The notes: generated from the sequence alone by a model not told the origin. A DNA stretch of 32,800 nucleotides from an uncultured Candidatus Saccharibacteria bacterium (GCA_964561525.1 CAZLPY010000002.1:1-32800), one strand, 5' to 3'; counted from the first letter of the stretch, positions 11,735-27,330 are shown. Made by a program: numbers and translations.

Positions 11735-11855
11735 GTTCCCCGACGTTTTGGGCAGTCGGCACCACTAGATTTGGTTGTTAAAGCGAGCATCTCTGCTCAA
11801 GAAAATGGGTTGCGGTTGTACACCACAACCCGACTTCACTTGAGAAGAATTACTC
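11735..11855 (-). promoter_or_regulatory. Intercistronic structured element 1: long hairpin, boxA-like motif, AATCTAGTGG, short stem-loop
   Basis: Hairpin 11785-11855; GCTTTAACAA; AATCTAGTGG (11771-11762); CCGAC-TGCCCAAAAC-GTCGG. Confidence 0.7.
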
Positions 11856-12188
11856 GTTGAGCTGAAGACCATGGAGACTCATGCTATGCAGCCCACGACG
11901 CAGGTAGATCGTTTTTTGATGAGGCCAGCACTCATGTACTTCATCGAGCCTCCAGAGGTCATTGGGTGACTCGACGCCGTTTCTTAAGAAGCGCTCACCG
12001 TCCCCACTGGGGTCATTGCGGAGGCTATCGCAGTCGATAGCGAAACCACTTAAAATGACTCCACCGGTGCCATTAACAACGGCATTGCCGACAACCTTCA
12101 TCTCCGCCACACAATGACCATCGTACGGTCGATAGGTACAAGACCTAACCATATAGGTACCCGGCTGAGGCATTTCCGATTTGGGCAT
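11850..12188 (-). CDS. Hypothetical protein (cargo A2)
   Basis: Start moved to MPKSE (ATG 12188, GGGGAG RBS); no recognised family. Confidence 0.65.
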   Translation of the reverse strand: MPKSEMPQPGTYMVRSCTYRPYDGHCVAEMKVVGNAVVNGTGGVILSGFAIDCDSLRNDPSGDGERFLRNGVESPNDLWRLDEVHECWPHQKTIYLRRGLHSMSLHGLQLNE

Positions 12189-12193
12189 CTTTT

Positions 12194-12321
12194 TCTCCCC
12201 ACCTGTTAGGGCCGGTGGCGCCACTAGATTTTAAGGTGATACGAGCTAGATTTCTCTGCTCAGGGAATCGGATGAATAAGCACTGCTTGCTCATCCGGTC
12301 CTTCTGAAAAGAGATTTACCT
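12194..12321 (-). promoter_or_regulatory. Intercistronic structured element 2, homologous to element 1
   Basis: Hairpin about 12248-12321 with the shared TGAGCAGAGA arm; TCACCTTAAAA; AATCTAGTGG (12230-12221); CCACC-GGCCCTAACA-GGTGG. Confidence 0.7.
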
Positions 12322-12579
12322 TTTTCTGAAGTAGGCAGTGTGGTTCCGTACTGTGAACAAGCCGTCACCGACGGAATTATCTCTTCTCTCGCAAATCAAC
12401 TGCACTTCATGCTTCGTTTCGATATAGTTGAGAAGCTCCAGGTAGGACATATATGTATGTTCGGCACCATCCTTGTGCTCCCCATCGTACTTGATCTTCT
12501 TGTCTCCCTCGGTATAAGTCGCGCTGAATTTACGACACCCGTGGTCGAACACATGCTCAACCTCCAGTTGGGTAATCAC
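12316..12579 (-). CDS. Hypothetical protein (cargo A1)
   Basis: 87 aa, GTG start with GAGGAG RBS. Confidence 0.7.
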   Translation of the reverse strand: MITQLEVEHVFDHGCRKFSATYTEGDKKIKYDGEHKDGAEHTYMSYLELLNYIETKHEVQLICERRDNSVGDGLFTVRNHTAYFRKR

Positions 12580-12610
12580 AAGCCGCTCCTCAATGAAAAT
12601 ATTGGTACTT

Positions 12611-12686
12611 CGCGCCTGAGAAAGAGTTTCAGCTCTAATTCCCTAGCGTGATGAATCAGTGTAGCATATTATTTACGTTTTGTCAA
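12611..12686 (-). promoter_or_regulatory. Module A cargo promoter and leader hairpin
   Basis: TTGACA (12686-12681), 17 bp, TACACT with extended TG; imperfect hairpin 12611-12650. Confidence 0.75.
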
Positions 12687-12765
12687 TAGTTTGGGATGAC
12701 AAATAATACATAGTATGATATATTGGTTGTGCTATGATAATTGAAAGCATCAAACGGAGGCTAAA

Positions 12766-13617
12766 TTGAGTCCAAAATCCAGTGGTAATGCATGGTTAGC
12801 TGGGATCGCGATTATAGCATTGGCGATTTCGTTAACAGCGTTGATGGGGACAAAAAAGAATAATAACGTAAGTCAGCGCGATAGCTTAGCTGAAATTCAA
12901 AAAACAAAAATAATGAATGTTTGCGTCGCCGAATGGCCACCATTCAGTATCAAAGATGCAAAAACGGGTAAATATTCTGGTGTAGATATAGATGCCCTAG
13001 AAGCAATTGCAAAATCTCTTGGCGCAAATGTTTCCTACCACGACACAACTTTTGGTAACTCACCTGCAGCCGTCCAATCAGGTACCTGCGATGTAGCCAC
13101 CTCACTTTACGTCACACCCAACCGAGCAGCAGCAGTCAATTTTACGCGTCCAATTCTTTTTGGCGGGGATACTGCATTAGTGAAAAAAGGTGATACACGG
13201 TTTAAAACCGTTGCCGATCTGGATCAATCAGGCATCAAAGTCGCAACTGCAACGGGTGAATCAGGCGATATTTATGCTAAAGCGAATTTCACAAAGGCTA
13301 CGATAGTGGCAATTGACGTAGACTCATCTGATCAAACAAGGTTCTTGCTCGAAGTGACATCGGGGAGGGCTGATGTAGGAATTGCCGACTACAATACGAT
13401 CGCTAATTTCGCAAAAGCACACCCAGAAACTGCGGTGCTGTTTCAAGATAAACCGTTTAATCTCAGCGCTGATGCATATGGTGTGCGATATGGTGATACT
13501 AATTTCTTAGATTTCTTGAACAGTTCATTATTAACTATGCAAACTAATGGAACGTGGGATCAGATCGAAAAAAAATATAGCGCCCAAGCATTTCATCAGC
13601 AACTCGACATTAGATAG
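12766..13617 (+). CDS. Polar amino-acid ABC transporter substrate-binding protein (SBP family 3)
   Basis: N-terminal anchor; EWPPFS, GVDID, TPNRAAAVNFTRP and GRADVGIAD; GGAGG RBS with TTG start. Confidence 0.92.
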   Translation: MSPKSSGNAWLAGIAIIALAISLTALMGTKKNNNVSQRDSLAEIQKTKIMNVCVAEWPPFSIKDAKTGKYSGVDIDALEAIAKSLGANVSYHDTTFGNSPAAVQSGTCDVATSLYVTPNRAAAVNFTRPILFGGDTALVKKGDTRFKTVADLDQSGIKVATATGESGDIYAKANFTKATIVAIDVDSSDQTRFLLEVTSGRADVGIADYNTIANFAKAHPETAVLFQDKPFNLSADAYGVRYGDTNFLDFLNSSLLTMQTNGTWDQIEKKYSAQAFHQQLDIR

Positions 13618-13625
13618 AGACAGAC

Positions 13626-14294
13626 ATGTATCAGTGGAATTGGAATATCGTTTTCCAATATCGATATGTTTTTATACAAGGAGCGGCAACTACCGTATGG
13701 TTGACGTTCCTTGTGGTAGTTCTTGGTACAGCTCTTGGGGTACTTATCGGACTCGCCCGTAGGAGTGAAGCACCATTTATCCCTACTTTAGCAAAGATAT
13801 ATATAGAACTTTTTAGGGCTCTGCCCATTTTGGTCCTCTTAATCTGGCTTTATTATGTTTCTCCTATAATACTGGGAATTCAGCTGTCACCATTTATTAC
13901 AGCATTGGTAGCTTTAGCAATTAATTTGTCAGCGTTCGTAGCTGAAACAGTACGGGCTGCTATAGAATCAATTCCTACTAATCAGTTTGAGTCGAGTATT
14001 ACATTGGGTTTAAGCTCAACACAAACAATGATTTATATTATTCTGCCGCAAGCGATAAAAAATATGTTACCTAACCTGATGGGTTTATATGTTAATCAGC
14101 TAAAGAACTCTTCATTGGCTTCAGTGATTGCAGTTAATGAGGTATTACATCGCTCGAACTCGATCATTAGTAACACATACCGCCCGCTTGAGGTCTATAC
14201 CACAGTAGCCATTGTTTACTTAATTCTGATTATTCCTTTCTCGCTATTAGCCAACTGGATCGAGAATAGAATCGACAAAACGAGAAAAATCTAA
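13626..14294 (+). CDS. Amino-acid ABC transporter permease (HisM/GlnP type)
   Basis: YIELFRALPILVLL, AFVAETVRAAIESIPTNQFE and LKNSSLASVI. Confidence 0.94.
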   Translation: MYQWNWNIVFQYRYVFIQGAATTVWLTFLVVVLGTALGVLIGLARRSEAPFIPTLAKIYIELFRALPILVLLIWLYYVSPIILGIQLSPFITALVALAINLSAFVAETVRAAIESIPTNQFESSITLGLSSTQTMIYIILPQAIKNMLPNLMGLYVNQLKNSSLASVIAVNEVLHRSNSIISNTYRPLEVYTTVAIVYLILIIPFSLLANWIENRIDKTRKI

Positions 14295-15484
14295 TGGTCA
14301 TACTTGAGGTCAAAAATTTATCTAAAACTTTTTATAGTAATAAGAAACAGGCTGCTCTATCAAATGTCTCGTTTACGGTTGATGAAGGAGAGATTGTTTG
14401 TTTGATCGGACCGAGTGGCTCAGGTAAAAGCACGCTACTTAGATGTCTTTCTGGACTCGAGGAAATTGATAAGGGTGAAATTATCTTGCTCTCCAGCAAT
14501 AAACTTCATCACTACAATCGAGCTGCGCTAGATGCTATTAAAGAAAACGTAAACATAGTTTTCCAAGATTATAATCTCTGGCCTCATAAAACAGTAATGG
14601 AAAATATTATTTTCGCACCCGTCACCAGAAAAAAAATGTCGATAGATAAAGCAACAAAAATGGCATCTGACTTACTAAAACGTTTTGATTTATATGATAA
14701 AAAAGATGCTCATCCAGACTTTTTATCAGGCGGTCAACAACAACGGGTGGCTATTATTCGCGCACTTACTCTTCAGCCAAAACTTTTGCTATTGGATGAA
14801 ATTACCTCAGCGCTAGATCCCGAACTTGTCTCAAGCGTCTTTAATCTTATCAAGGTATTAGCCAAAGAAGGCCAATCTATGATAATCGTGACTCACAATT
14901 TGAAATTTGCATCTGAAGTCGCTCATAAAATAATCTTCCTAGACGGTGGTCGCATAATTCAACAAGCTCCAGCCCGTGATTTTATTTACGCTCAAAGCAA
15001 CCCTCGAATCGCTGATTTTTTACAGACATTTTCTCTCAACAAGCATGAAATAAATGTATATGAAGGTTTCGATCAATTTCAAGCTTTTCAAATGGGTACT
15101 TTGAAACGATTTAAAAGAGGCTCAGCAAAACACGTAGTGGCATCTTCGGGCGATAGATGGTTTGAATCAATGGGTGCCTTTTATGAAGCATATGAAAGAG
15201 AACGGGTTGAAAAAGAAATTTCGTGGCGCATGGTTATGTATAAAGAGTCACCGCTTGATAGAGATATACGGCTACGGTATCCAAAATTAAATGAGTATAG
15301 GCTAATTCCAAAAAATATGGAGAATCCAGCAAATTATTACGTCATTGAAGATATCGTAGTGATCCAAATATTTGGCAAACTTGGTGATGAGCCATCAATC
15401 ATCGAGATTAAAAACAAAGATGTTGCTCAAAGCTATATGAATTATTTCAATCTGCTGTGGGAACAAGGCAGAAAGCTTAAATGA
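14294..15484 (+). CDS. Amino-acid ABC ATPase (GlnQ/HisP type) fused to a C-terminal TrmB-like effector domain
   Basis: GPSGSGKS, LSGGQQQRV, LLLDEITSALDPE; about 145 extra aa from INVYEGFD to YFNLLWEQG align with the C-terminal half of 15481-16203. Confidence 0.88.
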   Translation: MVILEVKNLSKTFYSNKKQAALSNVSFTVDEGEIVCLIGPSGSGKSTLLRCLSGLEEIDKGEIILLSSNKLHHYNRAALDAIKENVNIVFQDYNLWPHKTVMENIIFAPVTRKKMSIDKATKMASDLLKRFDLYDKKDAHPDFLSGGQQQRVAIIRALTLQPKLLLLDEITSALDPELVSSVFNLIKVLAKEGQSMIIVTHNLKFASEVAHKIIFLDGGRIIQQAPARDFIYAQSNPRIADFLQTFSLNKHEINVYEGFDQFQAFQMGTLKRFKRGSAKHVVASSGDRWFESMGAFYEAYERERVEKEISWRMVMYKESPLDRDIRLRYPKLNEYRLIPKNMENPANYYVIEDIVVIQIFGKLGDEPSIIEIKNKDVAQSYMNYFNLLWEQGRKLK

Positions 15485-16203
15485 TGGAAAAAGAGTTAGA
15501 AAAGCTAGGATTTTCAGTGCATCAGGCGGAGGTTTATTTGGCCTTAATCGACATTGGCCAAACTGGCGCGGGTGAGATAGTCAAGCAGACTGGCTTACAC
15601 CGCAACATTGTCTACGAAACGCTCGATAAACTAGTCGCCAAACACTTGGCCACCAAAGTCACCGAAAAGAACGTGGCGCAGTTTGTGGCTACTGACCCTA
15701 AGCGCATTCAAGAACACATTAAAGCAAACTTAGATCAAGCAGAGATGCTGGTGCCGCAATTAGTGGAACGGGCCAATATTCAGCAGGATATTGTAGTGTA
15801 CAACGGCATTGAAGGGTTTCGCACCTACAACATGGAGGCGCTTTCCAGAATACGGCGCGGCGGCTCGCAATACGTTTTGGGCTCAGTTGGCAACCTGTGG
15901 TACGAGCTGATGGGGGAACAATATCGAAAGTACGAAAAATTGCGATTAAAGAAGAAAATTTGGTGGAAGATGATCGCCTACGAGGAATCAGAGCGTGATC
16001 AAGCGTTGATTGACGAAAAAAAGCTTATTGAGGTACGCATTATCCCCCGCAAACTCTCTACCCCAGCCAACATGCACATTTGGGAAGGCACTGTAGCTCT
16101 GCAAATGGTAGTAGAGCCCTATACGGTAGTAGAGATTCGGAACAAGGCTCTGGCAGAGAGCTATTTGAACTACTTTAACTTGCTGTGGGAGCAGGGAAAG
16201 TAA
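15481..16203 (+). CDS. TrmB-like transcriptional regulator (module A)
   Basis: LEKLGFS...AEVYLALID...HRNIVYETLDKLV wHTH; VYNGIEG; YFNLLWEQG. Confidence 0.88.
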   Translation: MMEKELEKLGFSVHQAEVYLALIDIGQTGAGEIVKQTGLHRNIVYETLDKLVAKHLATKVTEKNVAQFVATDPKRIQEHIKANLDQAEMLVPQLVERANIQQDIVVYNGIEGFRTYNMEALSRIRRGGSQYVLGSVGNLWYELMGEQYRKYEKLRLKKKIWWKMIAYEESERDQALIDEKKLIEVRIIPRKLSTPANMHIWEGTVALQMVVEPYTVVEIRNKALAESYLNYFNLLWEQGK

Positions 16204-16205
16204 AG

Positions 16206-16233
16206 CCGGCTTGAGCGTGGTGACTCAAGCCGG
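16206..16233. terminator. Hairpin between convergent genes, likely bidirectional terminator
   Basis: CCGGCTTGAG-N8-CTCAAGCCGG, perfect 10 bp stem. Confidence 0.7.
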
Positions 16234-16236
16234 ATC

Positions 16237-16848
16237 TTAAAACTTATGGAACACCTCCGTTCTAATTTGGCAGGATCCAGTTAACGGACCGCTCAGGAAT
16301 TGGCCGAGGCGGGTACGTGAGCACCATTCTCCTCGCTTCCACTCTACAAGCGTGCCCAGTTGAAATGTTATCGGTTTGCCCGATCGGACGTTCAGTGCCC
16401 AGCCAAGACCGGCCGAAACCTCATGGCTTACTGGCCACACCAGGCGGCTGTTCGGCATATTGAGCTCCCATGGACTACCCGAAGGTTTAAACCCAAGATA
16501 ATGTGGTCCACTAAGCTTTCCGCCCAATACTGGCACAGAAAAGACAGAGTAGGCCCCGATTGATACGATGCGATCTTGCTCGATGAGCTGCTCAGCGTAG
16601 AGCCCGAGGCGGCCTTTGACAGTCCTCGCCTTCCACGAGCCTGTATAGGCGACGAGCTGTAACAACCTGCCCGGCACGTGTGGTGAGCCAATTTGTAACA
16701 ACTCACCCACTCTCGGCATGATCAATTGTTCAAAGAGAGTGGGGCTGCCTTTGCGGAGTGAGCTAAGGTAGCCTCCACCTGCTAGGTTCGACTGTGCCGT
16801 GGCATGCGTAGCCATAATACTCAAGGCTATGACTGTAAGCGTTTTCAC
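16237..16848 (-). CDS. Secreted beta-strand protein, beta-barrel-like (cargo B)
   Basis: GTG start with GGGGGA RBS; signal peptide ending ATA-Q; ends QIRTEVFHKF; shares WPVS and SIGAY with cargo A3. Confidence 0.65.
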   Translation of the reverse strand: MKTLTVIALSIMATHATAQSNLAGGGYLSSLRKGSPTLFEQLIMPRVGELLQIGSPHVPGRLLQLVAYTGSWKARTVKGRLGLYAEQLIEQDRIVSIGAYSVFSVPVLGGKLSGPHYLGFKPSGSPWELNMPNSRLVWPVSHEVSAGLGWALNVRSGKPITFQLGTLVEWKRGEWCSRTRLGQFLSGPLTGSCQIRTEVFHKF

Positions 16849-16861
16849 TAGTACGTCCCCC

Positions 16862-16929
16862 TTGTTTTAAGTGCTTCTTGCGATGTATGCAAGAATGATG
16901 TAGTGTATTATAAAGATTGCGAGTGGCAA
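16862..16929 (-). promoter_or_regulatory. Module B cargo promoter, leader hairpin and boxA-like motif
   Basis: TTGCCA, 16 bp, TACACT (overlapping TATAAT); TTCTTGC-N7-GCAAGAA; GCACTTAAAACAA. Confidence 0.65.
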
Positions 16930-16940
16930 ATATGACCCTA

Positions 16941-16958
16941 TGGTGATATCTATCACCA
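16941..16958. promoter_or_regulatory. Palindromic operator candidate
   Basis: TGGTGATA-TC-TATCACCA in the divergent intergenic region. Confidence 0.55.
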
Positions 16959-16974
16959 CTTATAACATTTGGGG

Positions 16975-17032
16975 CTCCTCACCCCTTCTCTCTCCTCCGA
17001 GAGGAGAGGGTGGTCGGAGACCGGGTGAGGAG
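16975..17032 (+). repeat. GC-rich three-stem palindromic element covering the TrmB RBS
   Basis: CTCCTCACCC/GGGTGAGGAG outer stem; CTCTCCTC-CGA-GAGGAGAG; GGTC-GGA-GACC. Confidence 0.65.
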
Positions 17033-17037
17033 TGATT

Positions 17038-17790
17038 ATGTATACAGAACTATTTCAGGAGCTTGGATTAGCTCAAAACGAGGCGCGGATTTACGAAACG
17101 TTGCTTCGAGAAGGAGAGTCGTCTGTCGGTCATATTTCTGCAGAAGCAAAAGTGCATCGGCGAAATGTGTATGACTCCCTCAACCGACTAATCGAAAAAG
17201 GATTAGTATTTGAGATCATGCAGCGCAATGAAAACCGCTATCAGCCAGTAGACCCACACAAACTAGCAGAAACAATTGACGAAAAACAACATGCGCTTTC
17301 AAAAGTAATGCCGGAATTAGAAAAGCTCTATCAAGGCAAACCTCATCACGACGAAGTGTATGTGTATCGTGGCCTCGAGGGCTGGAAAAACTACATGCGC
17401 GAGATATTGCGCGTCGGCGAGGACTGGTATTCGATTGGAGCGAAAGCTGCCTTAAACAGCCATAAGCTACCCGGTTTTTTTGAGATGTTTCGTACGGAGT
17501 TAGGAAAGAAGAACATCACTTCTTATAACCTCTATGATCCGAGTGTCAAAGGAACCGAATACGAAGGTCATTTGGGCTCGTCTTATCGCTTTTTGCCCAA
17601 AGAATATCACACTTCCTGCACGGTCATTATCCTGGCCGATCGGATCTTTTTGTTCTCCGGTATCACGCTCGGTGATTTCAACGAAGACTTTTCGTTCACC
17701 GTGATCGTGAACGCAGAGCTCGCCAAAGCTTATAAAATTTGGTGGCAATTTATGTGGGATATGTGCCCAGCGGTTAAAAAACCAAAATGA
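17038..17790 (+). CDS. TrmB-like transcriptional regulator (module B)
   Basis: FQELGLAQNEARIYETLL...HRRNVYDSLNRLIEKGLV; VYRGLEG; WQFMWD; ATG 17038 fits the GAGGAG spacing better than GTG 17032. Confidence 0.88.
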   Translation: MYTELFQELGLAQNEARIYETLLREGESSVGHISAEAKVHRRNVYDSLNRLIEKGLVFEIMQRNENRYQPVDPHKLAETIDEKQHALSKVMPELEKLYQGKPHHDEVYVYRGLEGWKNYMREILRVGEDWYSIGAKAALNSHKLPGFFEMFRTELGKKNITSYNLYDPSVKGTEYEGHLGSSYRFLPKEYHTSCTVIILADRIFLFSGITLGDFNEDFSFTVIVNAELAKAYKIWWQFMWDMCPAVKKPK

Positions 17791-17853
17791 ACTACTAACA
17801 AGTCCTAAATTTAGATTGGGAATTCGGCAGATTTTTTGTCGAGCAGGGATACT

Positions 17854-19095
17854 TTATGTCTGATTGTTAGGGGATGAGTGAAACGCCAACGTTAGAGCAG
17901 CGGCGAACCAGATGACGAGGTCGTTTTTCCATAACGAATTATCCACCATACCAAGTATCACAAACGCCATGAGCAATACCGCTCCTAGGGCCGCTGTAGC
18001 CGATTTTCGGCGGTAAGCTGACCGAACAGCTATACCAATGAGCCCTACCAGTCCTACAAGCCCCGCCAAGCCAAACAATAACCAAGTATAAAGAAAGATG
18101 TTATGCGGATGCACCGCGTAGGGCGTAATGAACTCATCAAAGTTTGGCTGATGCAAGGTAAACTGCTGGAACGTATCATGAAATGAAGTCAGGCCAATAC
18201 CGAATATTGGATGCGATGTAATGAGCCCCCAGCTTTTTTGCCAAATGTGTACTCGAATGTCCGCATTGTCAGGGTGGCGCAGCGCTACAAAAGTCAACAC
18301 GATAGGATTATACAGCAGTAAGGTTGTTGCAAAAACGCCGAGGCTGAGGCGCTTCTTGCCGGCAGACCACAGTAACCACAATACGGTAGCAAGGATCGCC
18401 GCTACCACGCCGCCTCGCGAACCAGTCGCAAGGATTGCAGCTCCGATCACCCCAACAACCCACAGATCACTGGCGCGTTTCAGCAACACCAAGCTTGCTA
18501 CCAAACTGAGTACCAGTACCATGGCAAGTGCATTGGGAGAGTTAAACAATCCGACAACTCGATGAACAGTCAGATATTGTGACGTCTCTGGAACGCCTAC
18601 GCTCCACCTAGTAGCAACCGCGGGGATAAGCTGCACTAGACCAAGGACGGCCAGCCCAATGCCTTGCGCTCGCATACCGCGGATCATCACGGTAACGGTA
18701 CCTTCGGTCAACGCTCGCGAAAACATCCAGTAGCTTAAGCACAGCGGCACCACCCAACCTTTGATGATGCCAAGGGCGGTGTGCTTATCTGGTGAGACGA
18801 CAAACCCAATGATCGCAACCATAGCTACGATGATCAAACTGATTATTTCGGCAGAGTGTAAAGTGCGCCATTTGGGGTAGGCTACCCAAGCCGCAATTGC
18901 AAAGGCATAGATCAGTATCTCGAGCACATTGGTTGGAATCCCAAAAAGCGAAAAATGAATAAGATAGAGGAACGATAATCCAGGAAGCAATAAAACTAAA
19001 TTCGAAATTCGTTCGCGAGGAACGAGGGTAGGCTCTGCCGCCATTTCGAAATTCGAAATTTTGCCTGAATTTATTTTACCCGCCTCCTGCTTCAT
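17854..19095 (-). CDS. O-antigen ligase/polymerase family membrane protein (WaaL/Wzy_C)
   Basis: RVVGLFNSPNALA, TGSRGG, RVHIW, HPIFGIG and HPHNIFL; start uncertain. Confidence 0.88.
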   Translation of the reverse strand: MKQEAGKINSGKISNFEMAAEPTLVPRERISNLVLLLPGLSFLYLIHFSLFGIPTNVLEILIYAFAIAAWVAYPKWRTLHSAEIISLIIVAMVAIIGFVVSPDKHTALGIIKGWVVPLCLSYWMFSRALTEGTVTVMIRGMRAQGIGLAVLGLVQLIPAVATRWSVGVPETSQYLTVHRVVGLFNSPNALAMVLVLSLVASLVLLKRASDLWVVGVIGAAILATGSRGGVVAAILATVLWLLWSAGKKRLSLGVFATTLLLYNPIVLTFVALRHPDNADIRVHIWQKSWGLITSHPIFGIGLTSFHDTFQQFTLHQPNFDEFITPYAVHPHNIFLYTWLLFGLAGLVGLVGLIGIAVRSAYRRKSATAALGAVLLMAFVILGMVDNSLWKNDLVIWFAAALTLAFHSSPNNQT

Positions 19096-19098: not shown

Positions 19099-20526
19099 TT
19101 ATGCCTTACGTTTTGACTCGGCAAAAATAATATTCTGCACCGCAATCGCTAACCCAAACAGCACCCAAATGTGCATAATGTAAAAGGTAGAGAAAAACTG
19201 GTATTGCGCTAACACGCCAACGATCGCTGCGACCAACCCAAGCATGGTGGCGCGTAAAAACGGATCTTTTGCGGCAAACAAGGCCTGCATTGACCGTAAC
19301 AGCAGTAAATACAAAAATAGGATGCAAGCTACCGCCCCGACCATCCCGGTCTCAGCCAGTATTTCAAGTGGTCCGTTGTTCACAATGGCCCAGCCGTCTT
19401 TCGGCAGCTCAGTCGGATAGCCAGCCACCCAGGGCCCGAAGTTACCGATGCCAACACCGGTGTACGGTGATTGATTAAACGCTTCAATAGCTTGATCAAA
19501 GGTGCTCAAACGCTGCTCCGTGCTGGCATCTGCCTGAATCTGGGTAAAGTGTTTTTGCACTTCATCGATCGATTTTTGCCCCAGATTGGAAAAGTTCAAT
19601 AAAGCTGCCACGGCGATAATCACCAAAAAACTACCGAACAGCGTGCTTAGTATGACGGTAGGGCGCAGCACAAAAAATACGCTACCGAGCAGTATCACTA
19701 CCAAACTAGCGGCCATCCCCACGTAGCCGCCACGCGCCAAGGTTAAAATTAAGACCAAGCCTGGCACGGTGATCACTGCTGCCAAAAACCACCAAGCATA
19801 GTGGCTCACTCGACGGAGGCCGTACGTTAACGCCAACGACAATGGGATCATTAAAAAGTTCGCTAAATAAAGTGGTTCAAGCGCTGTAGCCTGGATGCGC
19901 GGGAATCCAAATACGGCCTTAGTGTAGAGCTCGCGCAGACCGGTTAGTGCGGTAGGTAGGCCAATAATATCGCCAACAAATTGATACAAACCAAACAGCG
20001 ATACCAGAAACGTAGTGATGAATAGCACCCGCACCACTCGATCAACGGCTGCTTTGTCCTGAACCAGCGCTGGGATGATCCAGATTGTGAGTGAAGTAAA
20101 GATCATAAAGACACACACTTCAAGGCCACGGGTAATAGCTTGCATGTGCCAAAACGAACTGAGAAGTGCGATCAAAAAAAGTAGATACGCCGGCGCATAC
20201 GGCGATAACGTCAGCCAAAAGGTGCGCCGCTGCAGGGCTCGTAGCATAAAACTAATGAGCAAACTGATCAAAATAACTTGGCTGATGCGAACCGTCACTC
20301 CGCCAACTTGGAGTGAGGGGATGCGCTCAAATGGTAAGGCGAAAATAAATACCATGAGGCCAATTTTGGCATCAATCAGTTCAAGGGTAACCAAGGTGAC
20401 CACAAGCAGCAACCCTAACAACATAGCGGGAACGGTCACTAAATTACGGGCGAAGCTCACCCCAATCAGTATCGCCAGCAAAAACATCAAAACAACATAT
20501 GTGGGTTGCAAGATACTACGACGCAT
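19099..20526 (-). CDS. O-antigen ligase family membrane protein
   Basis: Start moved to MRRSILQP; RIQATALEP, TLARGG, SPYTGVGIGNF and LAETGMVG. Confidence 0.85.
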   Translation of the reverse strand: MRRSILQPTYVVLMFLLAILIGVSFARNLVTVPAMLLGLLLVVTLVTLELIDAKIGLMVFIFALPFERIPSLQVGGVTVRISQVILISLLISFMLRALQRRTFWLTLSPYAPAYLLFLIALLSSFWHMQAITRGLEVCVFMIFTSLTIWIIPALVQDKAAVDRVVRVLFITTFLVSLFGLYQFVGDIIGLPTALTGLRELYTKAVFGFPRIQATALEPLYLANFLMIPLSLALTYGLRRVSHYAWWFLAAVITVPGLVLILTLARGGYVGMAASLVVILLGSVFFVLRPTVILSTLFGSFLVIIAVAALLNFSNLGQKSIDEVQKHFTQIQADASTEQRLSTFDQAIEAFNQSPYTGVGIGNFGPWVAGYPTELPKDGWAIVNNGPLEILAETGMVGAVACILFLYLLLLRSMQALFAAKDPFLRATMLGLVAAIVGVLAQYQFFSTFYIMHIWVLFGLAIAVQNIIFAESKRKA

Positions 20527-20554
20527 CGCTATGATACTTTCTTTGATATAAACG

Positions 20555-21382
20555 TTAGTTGTGCACGTGGGAAGCACGACGAGGGTGAGCCAGGTCAAGT
20601 AAACGGGTCGGCAAACCGCCACCACTCCGCCACGAATATCGAATGCGAAATGCCCATTTATCATACCACGTTCCGCGCTGCTCTACATAACGGCGTGCGT
20701 CACGAAACCAACCGCTCGGCACCACCAACATGTCATGAAAATCGCAGTACAATATACCACCATAGCGTACCCGTACCTGGTCTAACACGCGCGACACTAC
20801 ACCGTTATGCAGCAGATTCTCAGCCCACAGCAGTACGGCCAAGTCCTGCGATGCAGGCACGTGCATCCGTTTTATGGCGCTCGTGCGCACCAAGCACAAT
20901 GCCCCAGCAAAATGAGCTTGTGCATCAGTGTGCACCTCGTGCATTCCTCGGAGATGAAACGGCCATTTACCTGCTTGAGCTGCACCGTAATACACACCAC
21001 TGCCATCTTGACGCACTACCGCAGGAAGCAATAATCCTATTTCAGAATACCGATTAAAAGCATCCGCCAGTTGGTGAATAGTGCTCGGTTCAACGAGGGT
21101 TCCCGCCTCGATGATAATCAAGCCGAGAGCGCTGCTGTAGCGTGCTCGCTCAATGGCTTGCTCCAACAGCGTTGATTGTAGCGCGTGTGGAGACGATAAA
21201 ATGGGCAATCCGCGAAAATCTCGCGCTACCGCGGTTCTGATTGCATGCTCACCATACGGTATCAAAATCACTATTTCATGATTGCGGTATCTGCTAGCCA
21301 GTACCGAATGAATGGTGGTGTAGACCTGGGCTAAGTCGCCATGTGCCACGATCATCGTTAGAAACTTGGGTTGGACGTGCAT
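20555..21382 (-). CDS. Degenerate glycosyltransferase family 2-like protein
   Basis: TIHSVLASRYRNHEIVIL resembles a GT2 N-terminus; the expected Asp motifs are missing. Confidence 0.55.
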   Translation of the reverse strand: MHVQPKFLTMIVAHGDLAQVYTTIHSVLASRYRNHEIVILIPYGEHAIRTAVARDFRGLPILSSPHALQSTLLEQAIERARYSSALGLIIIEAGTLVEPSTIHQLADAFNRYSEIGLLLPAVVRQDGSGVYYGAAQAGKWPFHLRGMHEVHTDAQAHFAGALCLVRTSAIKRMHVPASQDLAVLLWAENLLHNGVVSRVLDQVRVRYGGILYCDFHDMLVVPSGWFRDARRYVEQRGTWYDKWAFRIRYSWRSGGGLPTRLLDLAHPRRASHVHN

Positions 21383-21493
21383 GATTTCTCCTCATAGCCG
21401 CCCCTCCATTAGCGAATAACACGATATTGTTGCACATTCGCGACATAGATGCAAGATTTCTATCGATTTACCACAAAAAATAGCGATAAATAA

Positions 21494-21563
21494 TCAATGA
21501 CAAATTTCTAATTACTAAATAATGACATAATGTCTAAATGCTCATTGGAGACTTGGGAATTAA
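21494..21563. repeat. Heptamer array (TAATGAC type)
   Basis: CAATGAC AAATTTC TAATTAC TAAATAA TGACA TAATGTC ... TCATTGG AGACTTG GGAATTA. Confidence 0.7.
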
Positions 21564-22808
21564 TTAGGCATTTTCTTGAGCCAGCTGTTCTTCGATACGC
21601 AGCAGTTCGTTGTATTTTGCCACACGCTCACCGCGAGCAGGAGCACCAAATTTTACATACGGTACACTCATCCCCACTGCAAGATGAGCCGCCAGTGTCC
21701 CTTCTGTATCACCGGAGCGGTGCGACAGTATCGGTGTGTATCCCAGTGTTTTCGCCTCCTCAATGGCCTCAATGGCACCGGTAAGCGTGCCAATTTGAGT
21801 CGGTTTAATCATAATGGCGTTAGCGATTTTATCGGCTGCCCCTTTCCGTAAGCGGATGGCGTTGGTCGAAAAAATGTCGTCACCGATAACCATCATCTTG
21901 CTCCCAAGACGCTCTGTGAGGGTGATCCAGTTCGCCCAATCCTGATCAGCCAAACCGTCTTCAATGCCGATGAACGGAAAAATAGCCTGCAATTTTTCGA
22001 ATTTATTGATTAAGTACTCTGCCGGTACATCACCTTGATGATGCGCCAAGTGATACAGTTGCGCATCGGTAAACAAATTGCTCGCTGCCTCGTCAAGCAT
22101 AATGCCGATACTATCTTTGGAGTAGCCTGCCGCTTCTGTGCCTTGAACAATCAAACTCATACCCTGATCGGTGGTAGCGCCCGGTACCGCATAGCCGCCT
22201 TCATCTCCGACTTTTTGATTGAAGCCGCGCTGCCGTAGTAGCGTTCCCACCGCGTGATAAATTTCAGTGCCAATGCGCAGCGCCTCATGGTAAGGCATCT
22301 CGCCCCGAATCACTATGTTAAATTCCTGGGTATCGGTCGAAAATGAGGCCAGCTTGCCGCCGTTAAAAATTGTCAAAATGGGTGCCGGCAACACGGTACC
22401 CGGACCAAAATAAGCATGGAGTGGCGTTCGATTACGATGCGCCATGGCCAGCGCGAAGGCCGAAGAGATCGCTAAAATGCCGTTGGCACCATATTTTTCT
22501 AAGCTGGGGGTGCCATCGAGGCCGACTAGATACTGATCGATCATTTTTTGCGAGGTCAATTCAACATCAATCAGGGAGGGTACTAGATATTGATTGATAT
22601 TTTCCACCGCACGCAACACCCCACGCCCACGCAGCCGCCCTAAATCACCGTCCCGCAGCTCATGCATTTCGTACGAGCCGATCGATGCTCCGCTGGAAAC
22701 TTGTCCTAAACCACGACCGCCGCCCTCCAATTCAAGCTCAACCTCGACGGTGGGATCTGCTCGGGAGTCAATAATCTCGCGGGCATGGATCGATTTGATT
22801 TTGGGCAT
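21564..22808 (-). CDS. eno: Enolase (phosphopyruvate hydratase), divergent
   Basis: AREIIDSR, SGASIG, GDEGG, IEDG, GDD, SHRSG and ERVAKYNELLRIEE. Confidence 0.92.
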   Translation of the reverse strand: MPKIKSIHAREIIDSRADPTVEVELELEGGGRGLGQVSSGASIGSYEMHELRDGDLGRLRGRGVLRAVENINQYLVPSLIDVELTSQKMIDQYLVGLDGTPSLEKYGANGILAISSAFALAMAHRNRTPLHAYFGPGTVLPAPILTIFNGGKLASFSTDTQEFNIVIRGEMPYHEALRIGTEIYHAVGTLLRQRGFNQKVGDEGGYAVPGATTDQGMSLIVQGTEAAGYSKDSIGIMLDEAASNLFTDAQLYHLAHHQGDVPAEYLINKFEKLQAIFPFIGIEDGLADQDWANWITLTERLGSKMMVIGDDIFSTNAIRLRKGAADKIANAIMIKPTQIGTLTGAIEAIEEAKTLGYTPILSHRSGDTEGTLAAHLAVGMSVPYVKFGAPARGERVAKYNELLRIEEQLAQENA

Positions 22809-22867
22809 ACAGTAATACTCCTACTGATAGTATGCCTCAACAAGGGACTGGGGGGCAATGGCGTGGG

Positions 22868-22976
22868 AACGACGAATGTCTAAAATTAGCACTGGGATTT
22901 ATTTAGTCATTCGACATTACCCATTCGGCTGCGCTCAGGGTAAGCTGAGCACTGTCGAAGCTTAGAAATTAGATAT
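22868..22976. repeat. Heptamer array with an embedded palindromic REP-like unit
   Basis: GTCATTC GACATTA [TTCGGCTGCGCTCAG GGTAAG CTGAGCACTGTCGAA] GCTTAGAAATTAGATATT. Confidence 0.7.
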
Positions 22977-24053
22977 TCACTTGTTCACGACTTGATGATA
23001 AACATCGAGCGTTTCCTTAGCACATCTCTCCCACGAAAAACGCTGTGCTTGTGTATGGCCTTTTGCAATCATCTGCGCACGAAAATCCGACTGCTGCAAC
23101 AGGCGAGCGATTCCCGAAACCCACGCACTCTGGTCATGAGGCGAGAGCGTGATGCCGCCATCGCCAACCACCTCAGGTAGTGATGAAGTATTGCTCGAAA
23201 TAACCGGGGTACCGCAGGTCATCGCCTCAAGCGGTGGCAGCCCAAATCCTTCGTAAATTGAGGGGAATAAAAAGATATCGGTGCCATGATACAGGGCCGG
23301 TTTATCAGCGTCCTGAACATAGCCAGTAAAGCGTACGTCATCCTCAAGCCCAAGTTTGGTCACCAAGCGGAAAAGCTGGTCGTAGTGCCAGCCTTTTTTG
23401 CCGGTGATGACCAGTGTATGGGGCAGATGATGCTCCTTTTTTGCTTGAAAAAACACCTTGACTAAAAATTCCAAATTCTTGCGCGGATTGATGGTGCCAA
23501 CGTTCAGCAGATATGGGCTGGTGATGCCGTACTTTTCACACACCGCATCAACCTGCTTTGGGCTGACAACTTGCCTAAATTCTTGTCCAGCCGCTAAATG
23601 AATCACTGATATGCGCTCTGCCTCTATCCCCAGTTTTTGCACAATATCGTCTTTAGAATGATTCGAAATGGTAATAAAATGATCGGCAAAGTGATACGAA
23701 TAGGGCATCCATTTGGAGTAAAATTGGCGGGAGAAAAAGGGAATGTTGGTGTGAAATAGGCTAATCACATCGTGAATGGTCACAATTTTTTTACCCGAGT
23801 ACAGGATTGGCACCGAAAACGCTGGCTGATGTAGTAAATCCACCCGGGCCGAGCGGGCAGCGAGCGGTAGCGTTACTTGATCCCACCACAGGCGCCCAGG
23901 AGTAGATAGATCGTCCTGCCGCTCGGGATAAAATAACTCAAACTGATCATCGCTCGACACTTCCTTGAGCGCCCGGGTTAAATTTTCCACATAAAACCCA
24001 AAGCCGGTCTTTTCCCCTAGAGTAGTCTGTGCATCTATACCAATTCGCAACAA
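22977..24053 (-). CDS. Glycosyltransferase family 4 (GT-B)
   Basis: [19 protein letters not shown] and [16 protein letters not shown]; TTG start with GGAGG RBS. Confidence 0.94.
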
Positions 24054-24173
24054 AACCTCCGGTTTCTAGTATGGATGATACCAAGTTTGGGCTGCTTCGT
24101 CGATCAAGATTTGCTAAAGTCGTAACTTGGGATAGACTAACAATGCAGACTCTTACAAGTGGAGGAGGTAGGA

Positions 24174-24455
24174 ATGGCCCAAGTAACGCTCGACAACTTA
24201 GCCGTTATGGTTCAACAAGGATTTACCGAGTTACGTGACGAATTAATTTCGCGTATGGATGCTCGATTTGATAAAATTGAGGACGAGCTGCGCTATATCC
24301 GCAATGATATTCGCTTGTTAAGCATGCGCCTGGACGCATTCGAGAAAAAGACTAACGAGGACTCCGATGTATACCGTCATGAGATTGTGGACCTGCGCCG
24401 CCACATCCAGTTGCTCGAAAAGCGCTTAGTCAAGCTCGAAAAAGCCCGAGGTTAA
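24174..24455 (+). CDS. Small coiled-coil hypothetical protein
   Basis: Start moved to MAQVTLDNL (GGAGGAGG RBS); heptad pattern throughout. Confidence 0.75.
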   Translation: MAQVTLDNLAVMVQQGFTELRDELISRMDARFDKIEDELRYIRNDIRLLSMRLDAFEKKTNEDSDVYRHEIVDLRRHIQLLEKRLVKLEKARG

Positions 24456-25177
24456 CCCTCCGCCGCTTGCCACATAAATTCAAAACAGGCCCGGAAGGTA
24501 TCTACAATTCCTGATCCTTCGATGACGATGGTGTGGATGTCCGTATCGTATGAAACTAAAGCTAATTTGTTTTCATAGAGAATAATATCAGTCGACAGTG
24601 GGTTTGCGCCCGGCCAATAGCGGATTTCCTGCTGCGGTTTTTTGAAAAAACGTTCGTATGCCACTGGTCCAGCTTGTGTGGCGATTAACTCTCGAACTCG
24701 CACGTTGTTCTGTGCGATGCGCTTGGCCAAATCTGGTGAATACTGCCCCCATATTTTGACCACAAACTCGGGCGAATAAATATTATCATAGGCCTTGATG
24801 GTCGTTAAATACTCATAAATTGCTCGCACCTCTTCTTTGCCCTCGTAAAACCGCACCTTTGGCTTATTGGGCGCTCTATTATAAACCGATCGCAGCTCCG
24901 GCATCAATTGATTCAAGCGCTCCCAGCGATTTTTTAGCGTGCGCGATAGCACTTGGGGATCCTCCGCTACGTATCGCCGGCGATTATTTTTTTCGAAATA
25001 ACTGACCAGCCCTTTTTTCATCAGCGTATCGAGCACTAAATAACAATTCGGCCGAATAATATCGGCTTTTTTAGCGATTGGCTGCACTGTCGAGTCACCT
25101 AATTCAAGCAGCGCCACGTACACCCGTGACTCTTTTTCATCTAGCCCTAATTCCTGCAAAACGTTTATATCATCCAT
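24452..25177 (-). CDS. TrmB-like transcriptional regulator (module C)
   Basis: LQELGLDEKESRVYVALLELG...RPNCY; KPKVRFYEG; FEFMWQAA. Confidence 0.9.
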   Translation of the reverse strand: MDDINVLQELGLDEKESRVYVALLELGDSTVQPIAKKADIIRPNCYLVLDTLMKKGLVSYFEKNNRRRYVAEDPQVLSRTLKNRWERLNQLMPELRSVYNRAPNKPKVRFYEGKEEVRAIYEYLTTIKAYDNIYSPEFVVKIWGQYSPDLAKRIAQNNVRVRELIATQAGPVAYERFFKKPQQEIRYWPGANPLSTDIILYENKLALVSYDTDIHTIVIEGSGIVDTFRACFEFMWQAAEG

Positions 25178-25182
25178 TCGTA

Positions 25183-25213
25183 TTATCGTATATTATTTAC
25201 TACGATAAATCAA
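25183..25213 (-). promoter_or_regulatory. trmB(C) promoter with overlapping palindromic operator
   Basis: TTGATT, 17 bp, TACGAT, 7 nt to ATG; palindrome TTATCGTA-N10-TACGATAA (25183-25208). Confidence 0.7.
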
Positions 25214-25270
25214 CATATTGAGCTTAGGTGGGAATAACAAGATTAGATTTTATGAATATTATGATCGATA

Positions 25271-25367
25271 ATCGTATATGATACTTGACATTATCCCAAT
25301 AACATGCTATGATGTCCTATCGCTTAGGAAATACATATTCACTTAAGCGAGAACCTAAACAAAGGAG
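25271..25367 (+). promoter_or_regulatory. Module C cargo promoter, leader hairpin and boxA-like motif
   Basis: TTGACA (25285), 17 bp, TATGAT with extended TG; TCGCTTA...TAAGCGA (25320-25350); GAACCTAAACAA; AGGAG. Confidence 0.75.
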
Positions 25368-25374
25368 CTTAGAT

Positions 25375-25890
25375 ATGGCCAGTATGTTTCCACCTGTGGG
25401 CATGTTGATCGTTGGTGCATTGTTTGTCGGCGCAGGCATCAGATTCTTCCGCGCGAGCGGAGATATTGGCCCGCATGCGCGTTATGAGAAGGGTTTCCTA
25501 CGAGACGTGTATCGCTTATGCGGAGTCGGAATGTTTATCTTCGCCTGTTTGAGCCTCGGTACGCGTTCTCCTCGACCTGAAGCCAATGAATGGGCCTACT
25601 ACACCAGCTACCGTAGCGAGAAGAAGCTGAGCTGGCTCAAGCCAGAGATTAGCACTTACTACGGACCATTCGACTCCTCCGCCAAGATAATCCAGGACGG
25701 TGAAGGGTATGCCATCGTCATTCCGGCTAAAAAGCTTCGAGTGACTGAATACCCGGTGATTAACGGTCGCTATGAGCACGTTCGTTACATCTGGCTGCAA
25801 AAGCCGGGTGGGCGTATGATCGGATGCTGGGATACTCTTTATGGCGACTGGTACAAGACAGACTATGGCAACTGGCATCCCCCGGGATAA
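25375..25890 (+). CDS. Hypothetical membrane protein with two TM helices (cargo C1)
   Basis: Start moved to MASMFPP because ATG 25309 lies inside the -10 box; two hydrophobic segments then an aromatic-rich domain. Confidence 0.7.
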   Translation: MASMFPPVGMLIVGALFVGAGIRFFRASGDIGPHARYEKGFLRDVYRLCGVGMFIFACLSLGTRSPRPEANEWAYYTSYRSEKKLSWLKPEISTYYGPFDSSAKIIQDGEGYAIVIPAKKLRVTEYPVINGRYEHVRYIWLQKPGGRMIGCWDTLYGDWYKTDYGNWHPPG

Positions 25891-25897
25891 GTACCTA

Positions 25898-25926
25898 CAG
25901 CCCCAACGCGAAACGCGTTGGGGCTG
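25898..25926 (+). promoter_or_regulatory. Intercistronic perfect hairpin
   Basis: CAGCCCCAACGCG-AAA-CGCGTTGGGGCTG with no U-tract, followed by GTAACCTTAA and ATCTAG. Confidence 0.7.
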
Positions 25927-25965
25927 GTAACCTTAATGGCACATCTAGCCGAGAGGAGAATCGAT

Positions 25966-26334
25966 ATGAGCACAGGAATGTACGTACTTTTTGCCGCAAT
26001 CACCTTTGCGAGTTTCTGCGGAGCAATGAGTGTAGCAACAAAAACACATGTGAGACGCTACGAGGTCATTTTTATTTTGTGCATCCTGATATGCTCTACA
26101 AGTGGAGCATGGCTCTTTGGCAATCTGTTAGTATTGTTTACCGGTAATCCGGAGCATCGCGAGCACAGAAAGGTCAGCTTCATCGTTTTGGAGAAGCGCA
26201 TTGAGGACCACCACGACAGGACTGGGCATATTGGTACACCTATGCTGCTTGACCAGGACAGACACAAGCACTATGTCGAGGAAAGCTTATTCAACCGTGC
26301 TCATGAAGGTCAGCCAATTACATTTGAGAAGTAG
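25966..26334 (+). CDS. Hypothetical membrane protein with two TM helices (cargo C2)
   Basis: Start moved to MSTGMY (GAGGAG RBS); C-terminal small beta domain ending FNRAHEGQPITF. Confidence 0.7.
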   Translation: MSTGMYVLFAAITFASFCGAMSVATKTHVRRYEVIFILCILICSTSGAWLFGNLLVLFTGNPEHREHRKVSFIVLEKRIEDHHDRTGHIGTPMLLDQDRHKHYVEESLFNRAHEGQPITFEK

Positions 26335-26348
26335 GGAATCGAACTATC

Positions 26349-26379
26349 CACCTCGCGTCGTCTCGACGTGGGGTGTTTT
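26349..26379 (+). terminator. Module C terminator
   Basis: CACCTCGCGTCG-TCT-CGACGTGGGGTG-TTTT. Confidence 0.8.
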
Positions 26380-27103
26380 ATGTCTTCGCAGCTTGCCACA
26401 TGTACTCAAACATTTCTCGATGCGTATCAACAATCCCTGATTCCTCAATCATCACCGCATGCGGATCGGCAGCGTACGAGACAATGGCTAGCTTATTTTC
26501 GTAAATGAGAATGTCGGAATAGATGTTAGTGGTGCTCGGCAAATAGCGCACCTGCTGCAGTGGCTTTTTCCAGCTTTGATGCTGGGGCAAATTGCGCTGA
26601 TCAGTAACGACAATTTCTCGGGCTTGAATGCCAGCTGCGGCCACTCGCTGCCCAAACTCGATCACGTAATCGCCGAAGATCGGCGTAACAGCATCGGTGC
26701 GATAGATATTGTCGTACGATTTTGCCAGTAATACCTGCTCGTAAATTTGTTTAATACCATCCTTGCCCTCGTAATAACGCACTTTAGGCTTGTGCGGCGC
26801 CCGGTTGTAGATCGATCGCAAATCGGGCAAGGCTGCGGCCACCATCTGGGCTCGTTCTTGGATTAGCTTACTTAAGACTTTTGGATCCTCGGCCACGTAG
26901 CGCCGCCATTTGTTACGTAAGTAGTAGCTAGCCAAGCCTTTTTGCACTAACTCTTCTAAGATGTCGTAGCAGTTGGGCCGTTGAAACCTTGCTTTTTCGG
27001 CAATGGCCGCTACTGGCGAATCTCCCAACTCCAATAAGGCCAGGTAGACCTTACTCTCGCGATCTGATAATCCTGCACTAACCAATAAATGTTCTAAATC
27101 CAT
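26378..27103 (-). CDS. TrmB-like transcriptional regulator (module D), close paralog of module C regulator
   Basis: Same length (241 aa); shares ALLELGDS, RPNCY, RRYVAEDP, YNRAP and YENKLA. Confidence 0.9.
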   Translation of the reverse strand: MDLEHLLVSAGLSDRESKVYLALLELGDSPVAAIAEKARFQRPNCYDILEELVQKGLASYYLRNKWRRYVAEDPKVLSKLIQERAQMVAAALPDLRSIYNRAPHKPKVRYYEGKDGIKQIYEQVLLAKSYDNIYRTDAVTPIFGDYVIEFGQRVAAAGIQAREIVVTDQRNLPQHQSWKKPLQQVRYLPSTTNIYSDILIYENKLAIVSYAADPHAVMIEESGIVDTHREMFEYMWQAAKT

Positions 27104-27112
27104 TATTCCTCA

Positions 27113-27140
27113 CTAGTTGTATAAAATATACTACAAATAG
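27113..27140. promoter_or_regulatory. Palindromic operator upstream of trmB(D)
   Basis: CTAGTTGTA-N10-TACAAATAG, positionally equivalent to the module C operator. Confidence 0.65.
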
Positions 27141-27207
27141 AATAACATCTTCTGTGTTATAGAGCAAATTAAGATCAATTTATGCCGCGAATAGTAAATA
27201 TCATTAT

Positions 27208-27330
27208 GTATAAAAATATTGACTTTTATATCTGAATGTGCTATTATAGTCTATTCGCTGCGGCATACCTGCTGCGGTGAAGTCATTAAACAATCCAGTG
27301 GCGGCGACTGCCCGAACAGTCGCTAAGGAG
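27208..27330 (+). promoter_or_regulatory. Module D cargo promoter, leader hairpin, boxA-like motif and AATCCAGTGG stem-loop
   Basis: TTGACT (27219), 17 bp, TATTAT with extended TG; 12 bp hairpin 27254-27281; GTCATTAAACAA; AATCCAGTGG; GCGACTG-CCCGAA-CAGTCGC; AAGGAG. Confidence 0.78.

Follow-up and report, generated by a model that had tools for sequence, protein, structure and literature searches.

Which kind of signal is carried by a short repeat that precedes genes on both strands of the 32,800-nt stretch CAZLPY010000002.1:1-32800 (assembly GCA_964561525.1; the whole of this stretch is called the window here), and at what step of gene expression does it act? The first-pass annotation had described the repeat as a conserved AATCYAGTGG flank followed by a covarying stem–loop that abuts the ribosome binding site (RBS). 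We find that it is an H-type RNA pseudoknot, ~28 nt long and lying in the sense strand of mRNA leaders; of the earlier description, the structured cis-acting RNA in sense orientation stands, and the plain stem–loop with a conserved flank is replaced. The three copies in the window, c1, c2, and c3, have the layout that had been reported, i.e. the 10-mer, 2 nt, a fully paired 5-bp stem whose 10-nt loop contains GCCC-N-AA and, after the 3′ arm, a Shine–Dalgarno sequence; the ATG codons follow at 11730, 12188, and 27334. Exact AATCYAGTGG is found at four sites in the window: 11771-11762 (-), 12230-12221 (-), 27292-27301 (+), and 12776-12785 (+). The last of these has no hairpin, lies at the beginning of an open reading frame (ORF) for a solute-binding protein, and was taken as a chance occurrence. 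Ten exact 10-mers are present in the 1.10-Mb source genome, and only the three window copies have the hairpin. As a chance control, a 24-nt primary-sequence pattern was scanned widely through reference genomes; the 118 matches in unrelated genomes included none with a 5/5 stem and nine with a 4/5 stem, and were discarded as chance.

The first covariance model was built from the three window copies and one exact pattern match in a genome of the same family (G002). With it, a fifth copy was recovered from contig C5 of the window's own genome (32.9 bits, E ~1e-5); the model was then rebuilt twice, as R2 and as R3. The genomes searched were a 151-genome sample of the class, five genomes of the window's own order, and 12 and 44 genomes of two other orders. 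In total, 14 credible cellular copies were found in eight genomes of one class, all of them small: four in the source genome (G000), three in G021, two in G053, and one each in G002, G091, G143, G040, and G069. The E-values come from briefly calibrated models, and the large searches used strict filters, so that absence means only ‘not found in those searched’. The host class is consistent with the candidate phyla radiation, the agreement being in genome size alone. Several weaker matches were dropped before counting, including L167 in G039 (25.1 bits; within a long ORF and without a start codon), L168 in G117, L166 in G012, and L169 in G023 (flank only or no hairpin), L001 in G003 (one mismatch, no hairpin, coding), and a second match at L175 (11.5 bits).

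In the pseudoknot, GGY of the flank (the terminal GG of the 10-mer and the next base) pairs with RYC of the loop to form helix S1, which crosses the 5-bp hairpin of the earlier description, here S2. The order of elements is S1a (GGY), one G, S2a of 5 nt, one junction base, S1b (RYC), loop 3, and S2b, with an S1 of 3-4 bp and an adenine-containing loop 3 of the form C-N-(N)-A-A-C-N(1-4). In pseudoknots, one base can span the deep groove of a 5-6 bp stack, and a stretch of 4-9 bases that includes adenines is suited to the shallow groove alongside a short S1.

Both helices covary. In the 14-copy alignment (A9), 69 of the 70 cells of S2 (columns 18-22 / 37-41) are canonical and three of the five pairs show compensatory change on both sides; this covariation was reached by 0 of 500 shuffles, and the pairing was lost when the partner columns were slid. 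The annotation had made its proposal depend on further copies and on significant covariation in a larger alignment, and both were found. S1 (columns 14-16 / 24-26) is paired in 40 of 42 cells of the 14 cellular copies. Pair 16-24 is CG in seven copies, UA in six, and UG in one; pair 15-25 is GC in 11 and GU in three; and pair 14-26 is GC in 12 and mismatched in two, both of which carry a G one base further upstream. When mutual information was scanned over all column pairs, 16-24 ranked right behind the hairpin pairs among those that are at least 90% canonical. The same scan also returned 23-32, which joins the junction base to the C of AAC (GC 11, UA 1, AU 1, UC 1). Because A9 was built by a model that contained only the hairpin, with S1 absent from it, S1 is not an artefact of alignment fitting. 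Over 24 distinct cellular and viral copies (the latter are described below), pair 16-24 is CG in 13, UA in 10, and UG in one with no mismatch, and none of 10,000 permutations equalled this; Y16 and R24 were left unconstrained in the viral search patterns. For most viral copies in this count, the S2 arms were fixed by the pattern and the S2b register was chosen as the best complement, so only pairs 16-24 and 15-25 are independent evidence among them. Two interleaved helices, each covarying, are what an H-type pseudoknot consists of. G-U pairs make up six of the 112 helix cells, and together with the compensatory changes, the fixed orientation, and the fixed distance to the Shine–Dalgarno sequence, they are the evidence for a sense-strand cis RNA element. 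Three unpaired elements are constant in phages and in distant bacteria, namely G17, the AAC in loop 3, and the G that follows AAC, and a conserved, A/U-rich single-stranded tail lies 5′ of the knot. Two other pairings tried by hand, the 5′ tail with CUA of the loop and CC of the loop with GG of the Shine–Dalgarno sequence, were rejected as inconsistent between copies.

The placement of the knot is just as regular. Sense orientation is shared by all 14 cellular copies. In every one, the Shine–Dalgarno sequence begins 0-2 nt past S2b, and the start codon follows 8-14 nt past S2b, the Shine–Dalgarno-proximal end of the knot (9 nt for c1; for g91, the nearer ATG was counted). A promoter ends 39-66 nt upstream of the modelled region in eight of the 14 copies, matching TTGACA-17-TATAAT at 10-12 of the 12 positions; the promoter assigned to the c3 transcript (Table 1) therefore puts the c3 knot within a 5′ untranslated region (UTR) of ~80 nt. 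Five copies are operon-internal, with c1, c2, c4, and g21c after terminator-like hairpins and g21a at the stop codon of the upstream gene. The 14 copies belong to nine operons, eight of which adjoin a divergent gene for a TrmB-family regulator, and the arrangement at c3 recurs at most other copies. No TrmB-family gene was seen at the g91 and g40 loci, the latter of which is cut by a contig end. The operon with c1 and c2 adjoins a transporter gene.

We tentatively favour the reading in which the knot acts as a riboswitch-like gate on translation of its cistron, alongside transcriptional control by TrmB-type regulators. Since the knot ends 0-2 nt before the Shine–Dalgarno sequence, it sits at the 5′ edge of the RBS, from which it would set the loading of the 30S subunit on its cistron. 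A bound effector would fix the folded state of the knot, and each knot-bearing cistron would be tuned separately inside an operon whose transcription is controlled by a TrmB-type regulator. We infer from the sequence pattern both that the knot acts on translation initiation and that there is an effector, and of what kind it is. The neighbouring TrmB genes might also suggest that the motif is a DNA operator, as the hairpin arms form inverted repeats that such regulators could bind, and the phage motif described below overlaps the transcription start. This is the least probable of the explanations that we weighed. The inverted repeats are two, interleaved, and enclose an asymmetric conserved loop; the G-U cells would be mismatches on the other strand; and the arms vary within one genome yet stay complementary. 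Moreover, a TrmB-type operator would be a symmetric, orientation-independent promoter site, whereas the motif is in sense orientation throughout and lies 39-66 nt or more past the -10 box, or inside the operon.

The knot is also present in phages. Pattern scans of IMG/VR viral contigs gave at least 29 promoter-proximal copies. A pattern with a 12-nt loop matched 10 contigs, and patterns with 10- or 11-nt loops or with an adjacent Shine–Dalgarno sequence had no match in the viral contigs. A pattern that left S2 free returned 26 stretches, 12 of them credible, and L206 supplied a new compensated stem (ACGCC/GGCGT); 12 matches with weak stems (≤3/5) and two with 4/5 stems (L201 and L213) were set aside as chance, being GC-rich and without a promoter. 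With the helices fixed and loop 3 left free, 39 stretches were found, of which 29 lie 4-9 nt past a TTGACA- or TTTACA-type promoter; the other 10 were judged to be chance matches in GC-rich coding sequence, with neither promoter nor AAC. In all 29 promoter-proximal copies, loop 3 reads NNAACGN although the pattern did not ask for it. Pair 16-24 is C-G in 24 and U-A in five of these credible copies, compared with U-G in four, C-A in one, and C-G in five of the 10 chance matches; among the chance matches of the S2-free scan, C-A was found in five of 12.

Outside the 27-nt core, the sequences of the phage contigs diverge throughout. With the knot 4-9 nt past the -10 box, it forms the 5′ end of the operon transcript. 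The operon that follows encodes a hypothetical protein of ~150 aa, a second of ~400 aa, a MoxR-type ATPase, and a VWA protein, and upstream of it are genes for a small winged-helix regulator and a dCTP deaminase. A Shine–Dalgarno-like word precedes six of 38 ORFs in two phage contigs, so the hosts probably differ from the knot-bearing bacteria; the nearest named phage protein, from an Aphanizomenon phage at 30% identity, gives a mere hint on the host. The five viral records that were checked hold one copy each, and G308 has in addition a weak match (15.9 bits, E 0.16). The viral leader found no match by blastn against known phages or named-phage DNA, and the first phage gene belongs to no family in PHROGs. 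The 22-nt resemblance seen in mycobacteriophages of cluster M is due to a plain terminator palindrome.

The 5′-terminal position in phages bears most directly on the main competitor of the riboswitch-like gate, namely a constitutive 5′ leader module that would shield the message or favour its translation, either as a mechanically tough obstacle to an RNase (5′-to-3′ or 5′-end-dependent) or by docking the ribosome. We consider such a module somewhat unlikely. On this reading, bacterial mRNAs would be cut within the A/U-rich tail so that each cistron begins anew at the knot, where phage transcripts begin from the outset. In its favour, the single-stranded tail is conserved, the hairpins ahead of c1, c2, c4, and g21c could protect the upstream fragment (g21a, at a stop codon, is the fifth internal copy), and the diversity of the downstream genes suits a generic expression module. 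However, a stabiliser needs a stable fold and not the near-invariant unpaired G17, AAC, and following G, and each genome has only a handful of knot genes, which are not those expected to be highly expressed. The same promoter-proximal position, and the terminator-like hairpins between bacterial cistrons, would also agree with processive antitermination of the put type, with the nascent knot binding RNA polymerase so that it reads through intergenic hairpins or phage terminators. This is very unlikely in our view: the fixed spacing to the Shine–Dalgarno sequence would have no role, four of the five operon-internal copies stand after the hairpin and directly before the next gene, and nothing in the knot resembles the put or EAR families of Rfam.

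A third alternative is a site for a trans-acting protein that would repress or activate translation. Such a protein could be a regulator common to these bacteria and the hosts of the phages, a ribosomal protein, or the winged-helix regulator encoded nearby, if it acts on RNA. It draws on the TrmB-family genes next to eight of nine knot operons, on the small MarR/IclR-like regulator two genes upstream in the phage contigs, and on an AAUCUR word that was noticed by eye one to three times in some leaders. We regard it as unlikely. Five genomes have 33 TrmB-domain matches (one a 53-residue fragment), of which only eight adjoin a knot-bearing operon, and each operon has its own TrmB paralogue with the same knot. 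Furthermore, no protein family is common to all loci, and the phage hosts, judged by the scarcity of Shine–Dalgarno-like words, appear to be another kind of organism. In G000 the TrmB family is strongly expanded, its 1.1 Mb holding 12 domain matches that include the 53-residue fragment.

To place the knot among known RNAs, we compared it with Rfam 15. There was no match at the gathering score in the whole window; around the three window copies, E ≤10 gave noise only (13.6-20 bits, snoRNA-type); and E ≤1 gave nothing relevant at 10 other cellular or eight viral loci. An existing Rfam family, the result that would have contradicted the claim of novelty, was thus not found in that release. In the papers searched, no description of such a motif was found, and none of them contains its core strings. 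The knot defines a well-supported new family of RNA pseudoknots, of the small cis-regulatory kind, and is a candidate for a gene-control element.

Several small pseudoknots share its general form. Guanidine-III (ykkC-III), SAM-II/SAM-V, and similar small pseudoknot riboswitches adjoin the RBS, and small membrane proteins are among the genes that they control. Guanidine-III and SAM-II/SAM-V belong to the same topology class and size range, but the knot has no Rfam match to them, its L1 and L2 are one base each, and its conserved bases are different; the membrane proteins downstream of it have no Pfam family, so no SugE/EmrE link to guanidine-III is shown. Luteovirus frameshifting pseudoknots and flavivirus exonuclease-resistant RNAs are compact, with very short crossing loops and minor-groove adenines, and resist unwinding from the 5′ side, a property that fits the 5′-terminal phage copies. 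They are located in coding regions or 3′ UTRs of eukaryotic viruses and, unlike the luteovirus type, the knot has no slippery site or overlapping frame. The leaders of E. coli rpsO/S15 and phage T4 gene 32 carry autoregulatory pseudoknots at or near the RBS that are bound by the gene's own product, whereas the genes downstream of the knot differ between copies.

The closest known RNA is the preQ1-I riboswitch (RF00522), which is likewise H-type, very small, and equipped with a 5-bp hairpin. According to PMC11625349, the preQ1-I hairpin is P1, the second helix is made with the 3′ tail, the A-rich 3′ loop lies in the P1 groove, and UC or AC directly precedes the 3′ strand of P1 (the free specificity cytosine). 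With this the knot shares a loop of ~10 nt with UAAC-like bases near the 3′ arm and an adenine-bearing loop able to lie in a helix groove (PMC11625349). It also shares the place at or next to the Shine–Dalgarno sequence that goes with translation control, and PMC10018353 describes a compact preQ1-I pseudoknot that attenuates translation with the Shine–Dalgarno sequence outside it, by up to 10 nt. The differences are nevertheless clear. The pseudoknot partner is the 5′ flank here and not a 3′ tail, which makes the hairpin the second helix and not the first; AAC sits 1-4 nt from the 3′ arm, and its C covaries with base 23 instead of being left free to contact a ligand; no queuosine genes are among the genes downstream of the knot; and the preQ1-I covariance model does not match, even at E ≤10.

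Variable, compensated helices around frozen unpaired bases are the pattern of a small aptamer and, together with the preQ1-I precedent (PMC10018353), they lead us to favour the riboswitch-like gate. A nearly identical core in bacterial 5′ UTRs and phage leaders would be expected of an aptamer for something universal. In its narrower form, a new riboswitch class with a minimal ~28-nt pseudoknot aptamer and a putative ligand, gating porin-like and small membrane proteins and standing at the 5′ end of the phage MoxR–VWA operon, the proposal is possible but doubtful. A variant to which we give equal standing with that form is a bacterial and phage counterpart of the exonuclease-resistant RNAs.

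A number of observations weigh against the riboswitch-like gate. In the phage contigs, the ATG lies 20-50 nt past the knot without a Shine–Dalgarno sequence, a placement by which steric blocking of that sequence cannot be the sole mode of action. The covariation cannot separate concurrent folding of S1 and S2 from alternating folding, and the sample is small with many copies related, which limits the number of independent changes. Nested folding gave no conserved alternative or anti-Shine–Dalgarno helix; the hairpin probability in nested folds ranges from 0.00 to 1.00 depending on the flanks, and the partners of the Shine–Dalgarno sequence vary between copies. The motif is also rare and patchy, being present in eight genomes of the 151-genome class sample, and in a 151-genome sample of the phylum (0.7-1.2 Mb), G000 itself was the sole genome matched at E ≤0.01. 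Finally, the downstream genes do not appear to form a coherent set or to have a recognisable common pathway, so no ligand can be proposed.

The genes that follow the 14 copies encode three porin-like barrels, two P0002-like proteins, four small membrane proteins, one B12-binding radical-SAM enzyme, and four proteins without a family. The window genes after 11730 and 27334 had been called unrelated, but their products, P0001 and P0003, are paralogues (38% identity, E 3e-35), both secreted proteins of ~195 aa with a C-terminal F. The model of P0003 (pLDDT 94.4) is a 12-strand β-barrel whose best Foldseek matches are the porins KdgM, FapF, and NanC (E ~6e-6). A porin-like barrel is unexpected in this tiny-genome lineage, which is generally regarded as lacking an outer membrane. 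P0002 is weakly related to a counterpart in G021 (31% identity over 54 residues, E 9e-5). The porin-like family has 107 representatives at E ≤1e-3 in a library of 1.84 billion proteins; in a word-indexed protein search, the query itself was the sole match. Its first two alignments had no stretch conserved enough for scanning, and a six-protein alignment led a metagenome scan to five distant loci, none with the motif (best 8 bits); the motif thus does not generally accompany these proteins. The porin-like family had no match in the viral scan.

Among known RNA sensors, the simplest are very small pseudoknot regulators such as preQ1-I, SAM-II, and guanidine-III, and unknown physiology has come to light with every new class. 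The knot is short and strongly constrained, and it precedes porin-like barrels and small membrane proteins in poorly understood tiny-genome bacteria as well as standing in phage leaders. The pairs of S1 and S2 supply compensatory mutants, which makes its function directly testable, and a ligand or partner, if found, would give a function to an orphan gene set and to TrmB-type regulons.

Table 1. Coordinates of the pseudoknot copies and neighbouring features, counted from the first nucleotide of the window
Feature	Position	Strand	Evidence or remark
c1 pseudoknot core	11740..11763	-	Model R3, 50.4 bits, and pair counts
c1 parts	S1a 11763-11761; L1 11760; S2a 11759-11755; L2 11754; S1b 11753-11751; L3 11750-11745; S2b 11744-11740	-	
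c1 A/U-rich 5′ tail	11776-11764	-	
c1 Shine–Dalgarno and ATG 11730	11728..11741	-	GGGGAA-type run; overlaps last two S2b bases
c2 pseudoknot core	12199..12222	-	Model R3, 67.4 bits, and pair counts
c2 parts	S1a 12222-12220; L1 12219; S2a 12218-12214; L2 12213; S1b 12212-12210; L3 12209-12204; S2b 12203-12199	-	
c2 5′ tail	12235-12223	-	
c2 Shine–Dalgarno and ATG 12188 of P0002	12186..12198	-	GGAG, immediately 3′ of S2b
c3 pseudoknot core	27300..27323	+	Model R3, 56.0 bits, and pair counts
c3 parts	S1a 27300-27302; L1 27303; S2a 27304-27308; L2 27309; S1b 27310-27312; L3 27313-27318; S2b 27319-27323	+	
c3 5′ tail	27287-27299	+	
c3 Shine–Dalgarno and ATG 27334 of P0003	27324..27336	+	AGGAG, begins 2 nt past S2b
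Sigma-70-like promoter, c3 transcript	27219..27247	+	TTGACT-17-TATTAT
Sigma-70-like promoter, operon P0004, c2-P0002, c1-P0001 (in this order)	12658..12686	-	TTGACA-17-TACACT
P0001, porin-like gene	11730-11146	-	After c1
P0002 gene	12188-11850	-	After c2; 112 aa, no Pfam family
P0003, porin-like gene	27334-27924	+	After c3
TrmB-family regulator gene, divergent from c3 gene	26378..27103	-	Pfam PF01978, E 9.2e-13
TrmB-family genes of the window	15481-16203; 17032-17790; 24452-25177; 26378-27103		
Junction element upstream of c2	12252..12318	-	Ends TTCCCTGAGCAGAGA; 98.5% identity over 65 nt to contig C5 copy
Junction element upstream of c1	11790..11852	-	Terminator-like hairpin 11831-11807, complementary arms, ends TTGAGCAGAGA
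Phage gene-order examples	L193 (record G308); L194 (record G307)		Unclassified IMG/VR contigs

A cassette junction had also been offered as an explanation of the motif. That idea fits a neighbouring long composite hairpin, which ends in TGAGCAGAGA, and not the knot; by eye, the knot stands at the 5′ end of the genes and the TGAGCAGAGA hairpin element at their 3′ ends. This second repeated element lies between small genes and runs from the stop codon through a pyrimidine-rich arm and a variable GC hairpin to TTCCCTGAGCAGAGA, with the arms pairing around the hairpin. The junctions on contigs C2 and C5 are near-identical (Table 1) though their flanking genes differ. Of the six occurrences in the genome of the element's 10-mer box, five lie between small genes. 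The element could serve in RNA processing, act at 3′ ends, or be a site of recombination. On contig C5 it was noticed near 8652, 8029, and 6983, and G021 has a diverged form.

Other features of the loci were noted in passing. Each of the TrmB genes examined is transcribed divergently from a short operon whose genes are small and hypothetical. Right after the -10 box of several TrmB-divergent promoters of different families, the leader starts with GTCACGATRAG followed by GGCYTAAAACC-like bases (L155 ~5590-5560 on the minus strand, L157 ~838-880, L174, and L175), and in one such operon, the first gene has no knot; this leader start may be the operator of the regulator or a second RNA element. 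In the 60 nt ahead of the knot, AAUCUR or ACUCUR recurs, as judged by eye, with one to three occurrences per leader, at c2 (12262-12221), c5 (L155), c4 (L157), and g21b (L170). Directly downstream of the knot-bearing operon in the window is a PIN-domain (VapC-like) gene (10461-11063, minus strand) that has a small partner upstream of it, and other knot loci adjoin HEPN/nucleotidyltransferase pairs and genes of the 23S-rRNA-IVP family. These neighbours suggest that the loci are accessory islands.

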